64,000 bases of DNA from Escherichia coli (GCF_029227855.1 NZ_CP074356.1), one strand, 5' to 3'; shown: positions 1,334-10,750, counted from the first letter of the stretch. Notes: generated by a model from the letters alone, not told the origin. A program made the numbers and translations.

Positions 1334-4300
1334 TTACTCGCTAACCATCTTACTGAATAACTTCTCCAGATAAACGGGGCCTGTATCCTCAATAAAAAGC
1401 ACATTTCTGGCTTCCAGATTTTCTTTTGAGTCAGGTACGTTTACTAAGTCAACATAACAAGTTTCAGAAACAATAAATGCACTTAATGATAAGTTATCAT
1501 CCGATAATTTATGTTCAAGATTCTTAATTTCTTTATATAATCCGAACTTCGGATCATCAAGATTAAGATTGCGAATGCCTTTTGGATCAATAAGACTTAG
1601 CCATTGTTTACCACTTTTATCATCGACTAACCACAATAAGAAATCCGGATAAAAATTACCCGCAGTAGCAAAGCCCAGGCCTTTATTTTTAGAATCCGCA
1701 TTTCTTAGCAGATATAAACTTTTATCACCAATAATTTTCTGCCCTTTTGTCGAATCAACAAAAGACTGAAGATCCTGAACAAAAGTAATCTCGCTTGGCG
1801 CACCAAGTGCTGCCGGTCGCATTTTTAGCGGTATATTGGCATTTTTTTCAATCGAAAGAAGCGGGTAATAGAGATGTTTATCAAAGGTAATAGCAACCAT
1901 CCCGGATGCACTCCAGGATTTTGCTTTACCGATTTCGCCGTCGATGACCAATTGTTGTAATTGTTCCAGCCGACTGGCATAAGCCAACCCATCATCAGTT
2001 TCTTCGATCTCGAAATGGTACATTTTGATCATACCAGGATCATCTTCTTTCACCTGCGTGACTTCATAAAACTGACCTTCATAAGCATTTTTCAAGGTGT
2101 TGTAAAAGCGATCAGTATAATCAGTCAGCAGACGAAGCATAATATCTTCCTGCTTAGCAATATCTGCATATTGCTTAATCTCAAGCTCTGAAGCTGGAAT
2201 CAAAAGGGTATACCAACTATTTCCGATCTTTGTCTTACCGGTACAAAAGTCGATCAAACGTTGTTTATCCACACGTAAATTTGACCAGCCGCGTTGTAGT
2301 TTATAATTCTGAATGGCGAGATAAAGCCGATCAAAATCAAATGCACTAATGATTTTATAATCTAACTTCGCTTCATTGCGCACGTTAACCGGAGTATTGT
2401 CCCCTTTTCTGCTGGTATCAATCGACTCAAGTTTCGGGTATAAGTCCAGCTTAATATGCGGCTGCTTAATTTTCCCCTGAAAATCAGCAGGAACTTCATA
2501 CAATTCGGGAAAATAGACACGTTTAAAGCCGAGTCTTTGATTATCTTTATAACCATCTTTAAGCTTAAGTGTTTTAAGCCTGGTTGCTGGCATATTTGGC
2601 CGAGTTTCAAAATTCAGCTCAAGGATCTCGTCACTTGGCGTAATCCCTTCATCTTCCAGGTATTGTTTAAAGGTTGCCATGTAATCGGCACGTACACCGA
2701 ATACATTCAGTGTCTCTAATTTTTCCAGATGCAACCCTTTCGGACGCTCACCGGGTGTACTGCGTTTCAAAGAATAATTGCGACCTTTAAGGCGTACGCC
2801 ACGACCAAATAACTGAATGATCTGTGAACCTTCTCCACGGCCCATATTGAGCAATCCCATCGTTGAGACGCGCCAACTGCTCCAGCCTTCAGTAAATTTT
2901 CGCGAGCCGATCAAAATATGTAGTCGCGAGTCTTTGTCATTTAACGTATGAAAGAGTGACTTTGCAAAATCATCTCTCTGATAATCAAATGTCGTATCCT
3001 CTTCACACATTTTGTAAAGAGACGGTGCATCACCAATATTGATAAGGCCAAACGGTTCGGCCTCACCAACCTGTAATGCCAGTTCACCTTTACTGCCTAT
3101 TAAATTCAGAACTCGCAGTCGCTGACCAGAGTGAGTGGTGTTAAACAAGCGAGAAAGAATATCTGCGTAGATATCTTCCGGAGCGTTCATTAGTGCAGTA
3201 AAGCGATTTTCAAAAATGTTACGCTCTTTGGTATCGAGGATTCGCGCTTTATTTTTAATGAGATCGTTAATCCACGCTTTTGCCTGCGTTTCGTGGTTTA
3301 AAAACCATGCTAAAAAACGCAATACTGCGTGAATGTCTGAATCTTCACCACTTACCGTATTACCGACAAAAACCCACAGCGGTTTTTCGATATTAAATTC
3401 ACTTAATTTTTCTTTATTCTTATTGAATAAATATTGTTGCTGATAAAAGCTGAGCAAACACGCGGTAAAATACTCATACCGACGCTCATCTTTTTTATCC
3501 TCTTCAGGATTAAGGTTAAGAATCAGTGATTCTTTACCATAACCATCCTCATAGAAGAATTTATAGGAGTAATCGAACAGAATCGATTTTCCATAGACCT
3601 CTCGCGTCGCCTGAATACGCGCATCTCGTTTTTCTTCGCTGGTTAATGCTATTTGCGCTAACTCTTCTTCGTTCAGTTTACCTAAGGCCGTTGTTTCAAA
3701 AAGCAGCTTTGCTTTTTTCTTCTGAATTTCTGTTTCAACTGCCTCAACATTATTGCCACCGGCTACTGCCTGGCCAAAAGTTGCTGAATATTCAAACGCA
3801 AATCCGTCACGTGTTAATTTGTCACGACGGCGCATCCAGGCACCAGCAGCACTTCCGGTGCCTTTATGCCCTTCATCAATCAGAACCAGATTGTTGCCTT
3901 CAAATGCCTCAACGGCAACAGTTTTGTCACCCATTTCATCGGCAAGTTTATTGATATCAATAACTTCAATCGTGCCTTTGAAGGGCGCAGATTTACTCTT
4001 ATCGAATAACTGGTATTGGGTAAATCCTGAGTTTTCCAGCTCATCTAAATGTTGCTTCGACAGGCGTTCATCCGGCGTAAGCAGGATGATTTTATCCGGG
4101 TAATGGTGGGTATTACCGTTCTGGAAATAATGTAAATATTGCAAAATATTGACATGCAATAGCAGTGTTTTACCCGAACCGGTAGCGTTCCAGTATGCAA
4201 GTTTATTCAAGTCATCTAGAATGTATGATTTGAACTGATTAGCCCGGTCTTTTGCTGTTTTATCATTTTCAGCATTGTATGCTGCCAGCTCGTTATTTAG

Positions 4301-4714
4301 CCCATCGAGTAATTGCTGTTTACGATTGAAGTACCAGTCCAGGTAGATCTCGGTAAACAGAAGCGACAAGTACTGAAAATATTTCATATTCAGCACGGTG
4401 TCTTCTTTGCGATTACGGTGCTCAGTTATCTGCTGCCAGTGCTGTACGATATTGAGATCGTAACGACGCAGTTCATCGAGATCGATAAGATCGACCTCGA
4501 ATAAATAGTTACTCAGCTCATGGAAGAACAAGCTTTGGCCATCTTCATGGATGCCTTCAAAGCGATCTTCACCTAACCGATTTTTTAAACCTTGCAATGT
4601 GCCATCTTTAAAAAAATGGAACATAAAGCGGTTCAAAACCAGTTGCTTATGAAAGCTCAGTTTGCTGTTTGTCTCTTTTTTAACAGCTTTACCGGTGGTC
4701 GGTTTTTTAGCCAT
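1334..4714 (-). CDS. Type III restriction Res-like protein: superfamily-2 helicase with C-terminal PD-(D/E)xK nuclease motif (1126 aa)
   Basis: Walker A ATGSGKT, motif II LVLIDEGH, motif III SAT (EYSATFGQ), motif VI QLFGRGVRL; C-terminal NFYPDFLLWLV ... LSLIDPKG fits PD...DxK. ATG at 4714 lies 2 nt after the upstream gene's stop, with a GGAGGAGG Shine-Dalgarno inside that gene's 3' end. Confidence 0.8.
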   Translation of the reverse strand: MAKKPTTGKAVKKETNSKLSFHKQLVLNRFMFHFFKDGTLQGLKNRLGEDRFEGIHEDGQSLFFHELSNYLFEVDLIDLDELRRYDLNIVQHWQQITEHRNRKEDTVLNMKYFQYLSLLFTEIYLDWYFNRKQQLLDGLNNELAAYNAENDKTAKDRANQFKSYILDDLNKLAYWNATGSGKTLLLHVNILQYLHYFQNGNTHHYPDKIILLTPDERLSKQHLDELENSGFTQYQLFDKSKSAPFKGTIEVIDINKLADEMGDKTVAVEAFEGNNLVLIDEGHKGTGSAAGAWMRRRDKLTRDGFAFEYSATFGQAVAGGNNVEAVETEIQKKKAKLLFETTALGKLNEEELAQIALTSEEKRDARIQATREVYGKSILFDYSYKFFYEDGYGKESLILNLNPEEDKKDERRYEYFTACLLSFYQQQYLFNKNKEKLSEFNIEKPLWVFVGNTVSGEDSDIHAVLRFLAWFLNHETQAKAWINDLIKNKARILDTKERNIFENRFTALMNAPEDIYADILSRLFNTTHSGQRLRVLNLIGSKGELALQVGEAEPFGLINIGDAPSLYKMCEEDTTFDYQRDDFAKSLFHTLNDKDSRLHILIGSRKFTEGWSSWRVSTMGLLNMGRGEGSQIIQLFGRGVRLKGRNYSLKRSTPGERPKGLHLEKLETLNVFGVRADYMATFKQYLEDEGITPSDEILELNFETRPNMPATRLKTLKLKDGYKDNQRLGFKRVYFPELYEVPADFQGKIKQPHIKLDLYPKLESIDTSRKGDNTPVNVRNEAKLDYKIISAFDFDRLYLAIQNYKLQRGWSNLRVDKQRLIDFCTGKTKIGNSWYTLLIPASELEIKQYADIAKQEDIMLRLLTDYTDRFYNTLKNAYEGQFYEVTQVKEDDPGMIKMYHFEIEETDDGLAYASRLEQLQQLVIDGEIGKAKSWSASGMVAITFDKHLYYPLLSIEKNANIPLKMRPAALGAPSEITFVQDLQSFVDSTKGQKIIGDKSLYLLRNADSKNKGLGFATAGNFYPDFLLWLVDDKSGKQWLSLIDPKGIRNLNLDDPKFGLYKEIKNLEHKLSDDNLSLSAFIVSETCYVDLVNVPDSKENLEARNVLFIEDTGPVYLEKLFSKMVSE

Positions 4715-4716
4715 TC

Positions 4717-6513
4717 TTAAACCTCCTCCGCAAACATCAGGTTCAAGAATTCAGGTTCGATCTGGCGGATTTTCAGGCTACGAACAATCTCGCCGTCTTC
4801 TTCATCAACAGTAAAGGCGGTAGGTAAGTTATGATCGCCATTGATATAGATAACGTCGAACGTGTTTTCTTTTGCATATAAATCGAATCGGTTGGCATAT
4901 TTATTCAATTCTTCATAACCGATCTTGTCGCAATCGCGCCACAGAATAAGGGTACGCTCGCCTGTTGGTAGCATTCCTTCAACACGCACATAGCCACGTT
5001 CGATATTGGATTCGATGGATTTCACATGTAAACCAATGAGATAGTTGAAAGTTTCAACTAAATCGATGTTTTTACGCTCAGTGGCACCGGCGGAATCCGT
5101 CGCAATATCCATTTCGTAGTTAAATGGTTTTTTGAAATTATCAGTACTGAGTAGTGAACCTTTGCTTTCTGTTTCAAGCATATATTTTATTAAATACTCA
5201 TTTGCTACTGATTCATTCACTGTATCAAAAAGATCTTTTATTTCTTTTTGTTGTTCAAATCGAAGGCTATTTAATACATCTTCGTAACTTTCTATTTTCA
5301 TAACTTTAAGTATATGAGATGAGCCTGTCGTTGAATCCATAGCTTTACCATCTTTCCAATTGCTACTGAATATAACTTTTCTCAACCTGCTTAAAGTTAC
5401 ATTTTGTGCATACTCCCCCTGTTCAACAAGTATATATTTCCTTGAACCCGCATCCTTACGATTCAACTCTATGACTGAGTGGCCACTTGTTCCTGAACCA
5501 GCAAAAAAATCTAATATTATCTCATTTTTATTATGAGATGCACTCCCAATTAAATAATTATATAAAGAAGTTGAGTGACAATAAGGAAAATCAATTCCAA
5601 GATGAGTTGTTTGAGTTTTTCCTTTTTTAGCATCCTGAATTATTGATGTTATTTGCTTTTTAGCGTCAGCATATAAATATGCTTTCTGTCTAGGTTGCGT
5701 TGTTTCATCAACACCAAATAGTATATCCCCCTTATCCATCATATCTTTTAATGTTTCTGGGGTACGAGAAAAACCATTTGGTGGCATAGCGCATGGTTTC
5801 CCGGTAACTGGATGAATTAATGGTATATAGAATTTCTTGTCAGTCCTTGGCTCTGGGGCACGGAGGCTGACACTCTGGTACACTCGACCTTTCTCATCGA
5901 TATATTTGTAAGCTTGTTCACCTCCAGTAAGTTTTTTATTCTTTGTTACCCAATCATAAAATTTTTTCTTTGCTTCACTGTTAATTACAGGATATTTATT
6001 CTTAATTAATTTTGCATATTCGAGTATTTCTAATACATTCTCATTTTTCTTATTAATAGAAATCATGTTCTTTGTAAAACAAGTAGTATATTCATGTTGA
6101 ATCGCAATGCCACTACCACCATTCATGGGATTGCGTTTATCCCAAATAATTGTCCCTGCATCGATAAGACCTAACTGTTTATTAATTAAATAAAGTCGCT
6201 CATATTCATTTTCATCAATATGACAAAAAAATACACCATTTTCACTGAGTAAATTTTTAACAAAAAGCAAACGGCTATCCATCATACTCAGCCAACTTGA
6301 ATGCTTAAAGCTATTTTTATATAAAAAACCACTAGTATCTGTGTTATATGGTGGATCTATATGGACACAATCAATTACGGAATTATATTTTTTCTTCAAA
6401 AGATTTAACGCTTGATAATTATCACCATTAATAAAAACGCCATCAACATTATCGTCAATATCATTGATACTATTTAATATTTTTTCCTTAGATCTCCGTT
6501 TAAATGAGATAAA
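4717..6513 (-). CDS. beta-class N6-adenine/N4-cytosine DNA methyltransferase (Mod-like); no canonical start, probably joined to the upstream ORF by a -1 frameshift
   Basis: Motif IV IDPPYN followed later by motif I LDFFAGSGTSG (order IV then I is beta class). The ORF track starts at a TTG (6399), but the frame is open upstream to 6513 and encodes a conserved-looking pre-motif segment (DGVFINGDNYQALNLL). No ATG/GTG between the stop at 6514..6516 and 6399. Confidence 0.75.
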   Translation of the reverse strand, partial: FISFKRRSKEKILNSINDIDDNVDGVFINGDNYQALNLLKKKYNSVIDCVHIDPPYNTDTSGFLYKNSFKHSSWLSMMDSRLLFVKNLLSENGVFFCHIDENEYERLYLINKQLGLIDAGTIIWDKRNPMNGGSGIAIQHEYTTCFTKNMISINKKNENVLEILEYAKLIKNKYPVINSEAKKKFYDWVTKNKKLTGGEQAYKYIDEKGRVYQSVSLRAPEPRTDKKFYIPLIHPVTGKPCAMPPNGFSRTPETLKDMMDKGDILFGVDETTQPRQKAYLYADAKKQITSIIQDAKKGKTQTTHLGIDFPYCHSTSLYNYLIGSASHNKNEIILDFFAGSGTSGHSVIELNRKDAGSRKYILVEQGEYAQNVTLSRLRKVIFSSNWKDGKAMDSTTGSSHILKVMKIESYEDVLNSLRFEQQKEIKDLFDTVNESVANEYLIKYMLETESKGSLLSTDNFKKPFNYEMDIATDSAGATERKNIDLVETFNYLIGLHVKSIESNIERGYVRVEGMLPTGERTLILWRDCDKIGYEELNKYANRFDLYAKENTFDVIYINGDHNLPTAFTVDEEDGEIVRSLKIRQIEPEFLNLMFAEEV

Positions 6514-7838
6514 TTAACTGTTGCAAACTTGAGCAACTCCACATCAGAGGTAGATGGCTTCTCATCTAAGATGCCTAATTCAATCCATTCTTGGACTATT
6601 TTTTCATTATTAATTATTTCACTGTAAAACTCTGAACTTATTTTGTCCATAGTAATATAGTAATTACTTGAAACAACAAACTTCTTCTTAGTCCAAAGTT
6701 TCTTCTGGAAATTCTCAATTTGTGCCAAAAATGCAATGAGTTCCAGCGCAACAGTACGCAAACATTGAATCATGCGCAATTGTTTCTCAATATTGGCAAA
6801 CACTTCTGCATTTTGCACATTATCGAGATTCATTACTTCATTTTTAATATAAAAATCCAGTTCGTTAGTTAAAAAACCACCGAGATCTTTATGAATAAAG
6901 TAGTCTGCTGTATTACGCTGGGTATAAGTTGTAAGATGACGCTCCAACTCTGTACGTGACGGATTTTTTTCTGTTGGCGCACGTTTAGCAAGATCAACCC
7001 AATGCTGTTGAACTGTTTTATCAGCCAGAATTGTTGAAATAGCGGACTGCACTAAAGCATCCTGCTTAGTGCCCTTTTTCATGGCCTTATATTCGAAGTG
7101 AATAACTAACTCTTCTGTTTCAACGAGTTTACCGTCAACCACAGATGAAGTTTTCACCACTTCTACTGGCTTATATTCTTGTTCGTACTCATCGCCTTCT
7201 TCATCAATTTTGGTACGAACATGCGGCTCAATAAGTACAAAGCAGCGATCTAATTCATTATCTTTACGGTTATCTTTTGCTGTGTCCGCTGCGAGCAATT
7301 TAAAGCTAACTTTACGACCCTCATCTAATTTAAATGAATAATTAGCAAAGTTTTCACCGCTTTTAATGTAGTACTGGTCCTTATTTGCCCAGTGCAACAT
7401 CACTTCTTCGCCAGAATAAGGGATGGCGTAGGTATTACCTTTATAACGGCGTTTGCTGATAAAATCGCCGTTGTCATAATAACGCGAAAAGAAAGTCAGC
7501 AGATGGGAAAATACTGCATTTTCATGCTCATTTGCTCCGGATGCCATAGCCGCCAGTTGCTTTTTAAGCTCCTGTACTTTCGGGCTATCAGCAGGGTCCA
7601 CACCCGCATCAGTTGCCGCTTTTATTGTCAGTTGCAACTGATGTTCTAATTCTGATTTATTGGCATTTCCTGCATCCGCCAGCGCAGACTGGATTTTGGC
7701 CTTCAGCTTATTATCCAGATAGTCGTTAATTTCATCAGCACGTGCATTTAAAATACGATAAATACCGAAATCCAGTTCTGGTCGATCAATCTGAAAAATT
7801 TCTTTTAGCTTCTTAACTAATTCGTTGTACTTACTCAT
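6474..7838 (-). CDS. uncharacterised protein (454 aa from ATG at 7838); possible N-terminal part of a fused methyltransferase
   Basis: Long ORF with no motifs I recognise. Lies 20 bp downstream of the SNF2 gene stop; its 3' end overlaps the open methyltransferase frame (6474..6513). Confidence 0.7.
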   Translation of the reverse strand: MSKYNELVKKLKEIFQIDRPELDFGIYRILNARADEINDYLDNKLKAKIQSALADAGNANKSELEHQLQLTIKAATDAGVDPADSPKVQELKKQLAAMASGANEHENAVFSHLLTFFSRYYDNGDFISKRRYKGNTYAIPYSGEEVMLHWANKDQYYIKSGENFANYSFKLDEGRKVSFKLLAADTAKDNRKDNELDRCFVLIEPHVRTKIDEEGDEYEQEYKPVEVVKTSSVVDGKLVETEELVIHFEYKAMKKGTKQDALVQSAISTILADKTVQQHWVDLAKRAPTEKNPSRTELERHLTTYTQRNTADYFIHKDLGGFLTNELDFYIKNEVMNLDNVQNAEVFANIEKQLRMIQCLRTVALELIAFLAQIENFQKKLWTKKKFVVSSNYYITMDKISSEFYSEIINNEKIVQEWIELGILDEKPSTSDVELLKFATVNLSHLNGDLRKKY

Positions 7839-7858
7839 TATTTTCTCTTTCAAATCAA

Positions 7859-10750: not shown

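Follow-up and report, generated by a model that had tools for sequence, protein, structure and literature searches.

In Type III restriction-modification enzymes, ATP hydrolysis brings the Mod2Res complex into a state in which it slides along DNA, and collision with a complex at an inverted site triggers cleavage. Escherichia coli NCTC86 possesses a single Type III system, Eco86II, which comprises an extra gene for a helicase-like ATPase directly 5' of mod (PMC8259958). When cloned alone, M.Eco86II converted the fourth base of GAGCC to N4-methylcytosine (m4C) at 98.9% of the sites. A partially purified native extract cut plasmids with head-to-head sites approximately 25 bp 3' of GAGCC, cutting being partial (PMC8259958). 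The ATPase, which is of the SNF2 type and lacks an endonuclease motif, was dispensable for methylation, and no helicase peptides were detected by tandem mass spectrometry (MS-MS) in the partially purified enzyme. Its gene is co-located in more than 500 genomes, and EcoF9792I and EcoB4103II are listed as GAGCC enzymes (PMC8259958). Here, we analyzed a stretch of 64,000 nucleotides from E. coli (GCF_029227855.1 NZ_CP074356.1), hereafter called the window. Four open reading frames (ORFs) at positions 1334-10750 had originally been predicted to encode an SNF2 helicase, an extra protein, a beta-class methyltransferase, and a Res-like helicase-nuclease, and to form a candidate undescribed defense system. 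Our results indicate that this cassette is, with high confidence, a chromosomal copy of Eco86II and hence belongs to a system that is already known.

Identity of the cassette

The cassette of the window is 99.9% identical at the DNA level to the NCTC86 locus, and the 10.5 kb are 99.9-100% identical in NCTC86, F9792, B4103-1, and E24377A. Strains F9792 and B4103-1 both carry the window's cassette. The Res and SNF2 proteins are each 100% identical to their counterparts in NCTC86 (WP_001085525.1 and WP_000580534.1, respectively). Among complete E. coli genomes, the cassette was found at a coverage of at least 80% in 148 of 5426. Because the same gene content and order already bear the name Eco86II, the reading as an undescribed system fails, and it does so on the very finding that the original prediction had named as speaking against it. 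The status of a new system is thus unsupported, Eco86II having been named and characterized; experiments on the NCTC86 copy have demonstrated methylation as well as restriction (PMC8259958). Beyond that publication, we found no follow-up in the literature on Eco86II or on m4C Type III systems with an SNF2 protein.

The split mod gene

The coordinates of the four co-directional minus-strand ORFs were reproduced (Table 1), and so was the spacing of 20 nt between the SNF2 stop codon (TAA) and the ATG at 7838. The TAA stop codon of mod is separated by 2 nt from the ATG of res, and the GGAGGAGG ribosome-binding site ahead of res sits within the 3' end of mod, which lies directly upstream. The number of genes, however, is three instead of four, with mod split by a one-nucleotide deletion.

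A single PADLOC model for Type III methyltransferases, PDLC03646 (1057 positions), spans both the second ORF (positions 1-458) and the third (486-1057), and the corresponding DNA in E. coli E24377A and NCTC86 is one coding sequence of 1040 aa. An alignment of 10.5 kb with E24377A revealed two substitutions in the window and a sole indel, one T missing from a T7 run. The supposed extra protein of about 450 aa is the N-terminal half of Mod: the 454-aa ORF corresponds to Mod aa 1-452, with one substitution (D173E), followed by a 'KY*' tail. The downstream mod frame is open from 6513, which is why the second and third ORFs appear to overlap. In this frame, the earliest start codon is a TTG (6399), and an ATG appears only at 6285, past DPPY. 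The frame encodes motif IV (DPPY), the variable region for target recognition, and motif I (FAGSGT), with no ATG ahead of motif IV. After repair of the deletion, Mod differs from that of NCTC86 in 2 of 1040 residues (D173E and V778F). The intact mod reading frame of Eco86II is lacking in the window, where Mod is cut off after aa 452.

An undescribed four-gene defense system, composed of an SNF2 protein, an extra protein, a methyltransferase, and a helicase-nuclease, might be invoked on the grounds that mechanical calling yields four ORFs, that an SNF2 gene is no part of classical Type III systems, and that the N-terminal 450 aa of Mod have neither a Pfam domain nor a solved structural relative. 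We consider such a system extremely improbable, as the second and third ORFs form one gene in all near-identical T7 genomes, the REBASE-derived Type III models of PADLOC match end to end, and the three-gene system has been published and named, with biochemistry (PMC8259958). The apparently novel system resolves into one gene that a frameshift made look like two proteins, and a system already named and characterized in REBASE and the literature.

Table 1. Features of the Eco86II-like cassette and its borders, in window coordinates
Feature	Position	Strand	Remarks
SNF2-family helicase-like ATPase gene, 963 aa	7859-10750	minus	ORF call; extra ATPase gene of Eco86II 5' of mod
mod (M.Eco86II allele), 1040 aa if intact	4717-7838	minus	Broken by a 1-nt deletion
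N-terminal mod fragment	6474-7838 or 6474-7853	minus	454 aa from ATG or 459 aa from TTG, respectively
C-terminal mod ORF, 560 aa	4717-6399	minus	Frame open 4717-6513
res, 1126 aa	1334-4714	minus	Superfamily 2 (SF2) helicase and C-terminal PD-(D/E)xK nuclease
T6 homopolymer (coding strand A6)	6480-6485		Frameshift site; T7 in intact alleles
ORF of 100 aa	985-1287	plus	Convergent with res; homologues at the same position elsewhere
att-like repeat	11145-11158		14-nt copy of the leuX 3' end; blastn-short

Type III features of Mod and Res

The helicase, methyltransferase, and nuclease motifs listed in the original prediction were all located in the translations, and motifs, Pfam domains, and PADLOC models agree that Mod and Res constitute a Type III-like pair of a beta-class methyltransferase and a helicase-nuclease. 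In Mod, DPPY lies 284 residues N-terminal of FAGSGT, which is the beta-class order, and the Pfam domain N6_N4_Mtase (PF01555) covers residues 489-812. The core (aa 505-810) matches the Mod subunit of EcoP15I (4zcf_A) with E=1.7e-39, and the only PADLOC models matched by Mod are those for Type III and Type II methyltransferases. The middle region, which is responsible for recognition, differs between alleles, and many database matches to Mod break into separate stretches. Mod is accordingly a beta-class amino-methyltransferase with motif IV before motif I and a variable region in between, as in Type III systems.

Res contains the motifs GSGKT (179), DEGH (280), SAT (310), QLFGRGVR (634), PDF (1023), and DPK (1043). 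In 44 Res orthologues, GSGKT, DEGH, SAT, QxxGRGVR, P1023, and D1024 are invariant, and K1045 is nearly so. The PADLOC model REase_III (PDLC03654) matches with 2326 bits and is the only type of model matched, while a sequence comparison of Res with solved structures returned nothing at E<0.1. The helicase motifs, the C-terminal nuclease, and the joint mod-res transcription unit correspond to those of Type III systems.

By analogy with the NCTC86 copy, the beta-class Mod would recognize the asymmetric sequence 5'-GAGCC-3' and introduce m4C at the fourth base on one strand. Res would act only in complex with Mod and cleave approximately 25 bp 3' of unmodified sites. ATP hydrolysis would bring Mod2Res into a sliding state, and cleavage would presumably occur once it collides with another complex, located at a site in inverse orientation.

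State of the window copy

The one-nucleotide deletion in the A7 tract is predicted to truncate Mod at residue 452, before the catalytic motif IV. Res relies on Mod for site recognition, as is established for Type III systems and also stated for this one (PMC8259958), so that methylation and restriction are both most likely off in the window. We conclude that the system in the window is probably inactive, unless the indel is a sequencing error. Loss of Mod would be a non-lethal way to shed the system.

Several points weigh against the interpretation of the cassette as an inactivated Eco86II copy. The deletion may be a homopolymer assembly error. An N-terminally truncated Mod could be made from the TTG at 6399, the frame of which keeps DPPY, the variable region, and FAGSGT. 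Furthermore, the recognition site ascribed to the window is that of M.Eco86II, from which the Mod of the window differs by D173E and V778F.

If the T6 tract were a homopolymer sequencing or assembly error, the system in the window would be intact and active. Single-base homopolymer indels are indeed the commonest long-read error, and neither Res nor SNF2 carries a lesion, both matching the functional NCTC86 proteins at every residue. Among the 33 complete genomes with the window's mod segment, 30 have T7, two have T6 (H22 and MS 21-1), and one has T8. The predominance of T7 would be in line with an error in the window, but T6 also occurs in two complete RefSeq assemblies, and a T8 variant exists. 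The cassette of H22, the mod gene of which is labeled 'frameshifted' by PGAP, is 98.07% identical to that of the window, with 196 substitutions, and is located directly beside leuX. Judged by these substitutions and the different context, the T6 tract of H22 is an independent occurrence in a separate lineage. Degraded copies of the cassette are, moreover, common in E. coli, an example being the IS1-truncated mod-res remnant P0003 (305 indexed assembly blocks), which argues that loss is frequent. Taken together, an intact and active system in the window is possible but rather unlikely. The occurrence of T6 and T8 suggests recurrent slippage or decay at the tract.

The A7 tract could also be regarded as a phase-variation switch that turns mod ON and OFF in a phasevarion-like manner. 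Tract lengths of 6, 7, and 8 do occur among otherwise near-identical alleles, T6 is found in two lineages that are 196 substitutions apart, and other bacteria are well known to have Type III systems with phase-variable mod genes (PMC8259958). Seven bases are, however, short for an efficient contingency locus, the off-length is found in only 3 of the 33 complete genomes (plus the window), the tract-length variants may themselves be sequencing errors, and no phasevarion based on an m4C Type III enzyme is on record (PMC8259958). We therefore regard a switch as very unlikely and retain the view that mod of the window was probably inactivated by the deletion.

P0003 was considered as a second frameshifted allele and rejected, since it is a remnant truncated by IS1 and its recognition region differs. 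Two E. coli loci (L087 and L088; gene at 8001-9671) contain IS1, a mod gene that is truncated at its 5' end (556 aa) and differs in its recognition region, and an intact res, and have no SNF2 gene. Remnants of this IS1/truncated mod/res type are widespread in E. coli. The window's mod segment recurs in no more than 33 of the 148 genomes that have the complete cassette, indicating that several mod alleles circulate.

The SNF2 partner

The SNF2 gene had been described as a co-directional extra component beside mod and res, and this holds true. The protein contains the Pfam domains SNF2-rel_dom (42-289) and Helicase_C (437-544) and the motifs GLGKT (aa 66), DEAH (163), TATP (195), and QRIGRCHRYGQ (535). 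These ATPase motifs are invariant in 38 orthologues. Among solved structures, the best sequence match of the core is RapA (3e-36; best stretch aa 37-227), and the PADLOC model BrxHI/BrxHII matches at 2e-75. For the C-terminal ~370 aa, a PDB profile search gave no meaningful match, and the alignment of the C-terminal region revealed no conserved acidic/lysine (nuclease-like) triad, in keeping with the published absence of an endonuclease motif (PMC8259958).

The distribution of the gene was assessed in a Res-seeded scan with one genome per species, which yielded at least 558 relatives; 80 loci were fetched, 55 of which had enough flanking DNA. The long-Mod family itself comprises 1936 clusters at 50% identity (E<1e-30). 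An SNF2 gene was present in 50 of the 55 assessable loci (91%), located upstream of mod in 42 and downstream of res in eight, while the remaining five consisted of mod and res only, with no SNF2 gene within 3 kb. The SNF2-bearing loci belong to Proteobacteria, Chlorobi, Verrucomicrobia, Planctomycetes, Chloroflexi, Actinobacteria, Acidobacteria, Nitrospirae, and a Clostridium. In the reverse direction, the triad was found in all six SNF2-seeded contexts, i.e., in Legionella, Desulfurispira, Vibrio, Citrobacter, a proteobacterial metagenome-assembled genome (MAG), and a TARA scaffold, the helicase of which is named for Dasania marina. The identities of the SNF2 and Res proteins to those of E. 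coli are correlated (Spearman 0.54, p=5e-5), and over long range SNF2 retains ~52-55% identity, Res ~40%, and Mod 32-39%. The SNF2 gene is thus a frequent yet non-obligatory component, a finding that confirms the published co-location in over 500 genomes and carries it further.

The SNF2 protein, encoded upstream of mod in one operon with it, has a complete ATPase core, is devoid of a nuclease motif, and is a conserved companion of the long-Mod/long-Res Type III clade; we propose an accessory role in vivo. It might serve as a translocase or remodeller on protein-covered or invading DNA, in the control of self-restriction, or in countering anti-restriction. We tentatively put forward, as a possibility that we would not yet call probable, that it is a third functional partner that provides the clade with a property that classical Type III enzymes do not have. 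The SNF2 motor may give access to invader DNA that is coated with protein or replicating, protect self-DNA when under-methylated, or confer resistance to anti-restriction proteins. The presence of the gene in 50 of 55 loci, its two positions relative to mod and res, the invariant ATPase motifs, and the higher long-range conservation are compatible with such a function, and dispensability has been shown only for methylation and partial in vitro cleavage (PMC8259958). If true, the clade would form a 'Type III plus SNF2' subclass with a mechanism of its own. The residual interest of the locus lies in the role of an SNF2 motor beside mod and res in hundreds of Type III systems, a question raised previously (PMC8259958). 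The comparative data, i.e., the 91% SNF2 linkage in Res-seeded loci, the two gene orders, the five two-gene variants, the mod-res hotspot, and the 100-aa convergent ORF (both described below), offer natural controls.

The best matches of the SNF2 protein in both PADLOC (1e-199) and NCBIfam are DrmD models, so the cassette might be taken for a reduced or variant class 1 DISARM, in which a DrmD-like SNF2 protein and a methyltransferase are retained and Res replaces DrmABC. With the NCBIfam model DrmD_b, however, the protein scores 666.7 bits where the curated cutoff is 950, the match being confined to the helicase core (aa 31-678), and with DrmD it scores 294 where the cutoff is 610. DrmA, DrmB (DUF1998), and DrmC (PLD) are not annotated among the neighbors in E24377A; Mod belongs to the beta class (PF01555) and is related to that of EcoP15I, and Res matches REase_III only. 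The partners consistently linked in the 55 Res-seeded loci and six SNF2-seeded contexts are long Mod and Res. No DUF1998 or PLD gene was found in the six SNF2-seeded contexts, which were Pfam-annotated, the Res-seeded loci not having been screened for either. A reduced DISARM is therefore scarcely credible. Class 1 DISARM proper was rejected as well, in agreement with the original prediction, since no cassette protein has DrmA, DrmB, or DrmC as its best family and SNF2 remains below the DrmD cutoffs.

Two further candidates were rejected. Hma, the helicase-methylase-ATPase system of PADLOC, is defined by a 5-methylcytosine (m5C) methyltransferase (PMC8565338), whereas the enzyme of the cassette belongs to the N6_N4 class, and there is no match to HmaB or HmaC. 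BREX-related (BR) systems are centered on DUF499, accompanied by an N6-methyltransferase and a Swi2/Snf2 helicase (PMC12839542), and no DUF499 gene is present in the cassette, which consists of SNF2, Mod, and Res only.

Variation among related loci

The order mod-res-SNF2, with SNF2 downstream, was observed in Pasteurellaceae, Neisseriaceae, and Cardiobacterium (L042, L046, L050, L051, L053, L055, L056, L058, and L059), showing that the linkage of SNF2 to mod-res survives the rearrangement. The natural two-gene relatives are L009, L021, L024, L027, and L041, in which the search for an SNF2 gene extended over 3 kb on both sides. L038 is also devoid of an SNF2 gene, but its contig stops at res. 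All retain the long N-terminal domain of Mod.

Extra genes, together spanning 0.6-2 kb, are located between mod and res in 22 of the 55 loci. Among their products are DUF1016/YhcG-type nucleases (PADLOC PDC-S02), a pair of an AAA ATPase and a DUF4276-like protein (HEC-01A/B), SoFic, PDC-S05, and an AbiU-like protein. Examples are L005 (16279-17831), L021 (8225-9999), L041 (8911-10011), L082 (8645-9760), L031 (8891-9934), L065 (8518-9600), L027, L045, L048, and L086. Defense genes are recurrently embedded at the mod-res junction, a hotspot of a kind also known from other multi-gene systems.

At the SNF2 start, a gene of 57-61 aa with an HTH_17 domain abuts or overlaps in Legionella, Vibrio, and Citrobacter (L003, 9816-10001; L006, 7835-8008; L092, 7835-8008), and a BrxR-type WYL regulator occupies this position in the TARA scaffold (L091, 7105-8001). 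Neither of the two was found at the SNF2 start of the E. coli cassette. A 62-aa ORF of the window (10747-10935) that overlaps the SNF2 start was considered as the HTH_17 counterpart and rejected, as it is unrelated.

Genomic setting

As originally predicted, the cassette is AT-rich, with a G+C content of 0.31-0.45 compared to 0.52-0.59 in the adjacent island, and lies beyond a leuX att-like repeat. The leuX gene is located at 58230-58314, and an exact 14-nt copy of its 3' end bounds the cassette. In both the window and NCTC86, an island of ~47 kb lies between leuX and the cassette; in STEC1575 and H22, this island is absent and the cassette directly abuts leuX. In the window, the island (11300-58314) contains CbtA/YeeU toxin-antitoxin genes, an antirestriction gene, Ag43, and DUF-family genes.

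On the other side, an ORF on the plus strand (19-672), cut by the window start, encodes the C-terminal 217 aa of an SBD-HNH ScoMcrA-like Type IV restriction endonuclease, which binds phosphorothioated DNA (NCBIfam NF045808, 330 bits). Because this endonuclease adjoins the cassette, the leuX-nanC interval is a small defense islet. The view of a separately acquired defense island agrees with this low-G+C islet at the leuX hotspot.

The 100-aa ORF downstream of res has homologues with 50-68% identity at the same place and in the same orientation after res in seven other loci, and a partial match in L007. These homologues stem from Vibrio, Shewanella, Arsukibacterium, Pseudomonas, a Burkholderiales MAG, and the Gammaproteobacteria MAG UBA3532, and one of the loci is without an SNF2 gene. 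The ORF matched nothing in Pfam, NCBIfam, or PADLOC. It may represent a small accessory or regulatory gene of a subclade, possibly traveling with the cassette.

Comparison with known systems

For the helicase core of the SNF2 protein, DrmD of class 1 DISARM is the nearest profile family. Unlike DrmD, however, the protein scores below the curated cutoff, its C-terminal ~285 aa are unmatched, and its partners are Type III Mod and Res instead of DrmA, DrmB, DrmC, and DrmMI. The likeness to the Swi2/Snf2 ATPases of the RapA and BrxHII type is, in the case of RapA, limited to the ATPase core. Unlike Type 3 BREX and the DUF499-containing BREX-related systems, the cassette has none of their components.

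With the classical Type III systems EcoP15I, EcoP1I, and StyLTI, the cassette shares the mod-res operon, a beta-class Mod, and SF2 motifs together with a C-terminal PD-(D/E)xK nuclease in Res. The asymmetric site and cleavage approximately 25 bp downstream are likewise shared (PMC8259958). BspHIV of Acinetobacter sp. H, the other characterized three-gene m4C Type III system, has the same ATPase/mod/res architecture, and its Mod alone methylates (PMC8259958). BspHIV, which we liken to the cassette by architecture only, differs in its CGCCC specificity and in the spacing of ~140 bp that separates its ATPase gene from mod (PMC8259958).

The closest relatives are Eco86II and its isoschizomers EcoF9792I, EcoB4103II, and Sen6016III, all of which are Type III systems that recognize GAGCC and form m4C (Murray et al. 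2021, PMC8259958). The window deviates from Eco86II in the one-nucleotide deletion that splits mod and in the D173E and V778F exchanges, and coincides with it in locus, gene order, sequence, and the extra helicase-like gene 5' of mod.

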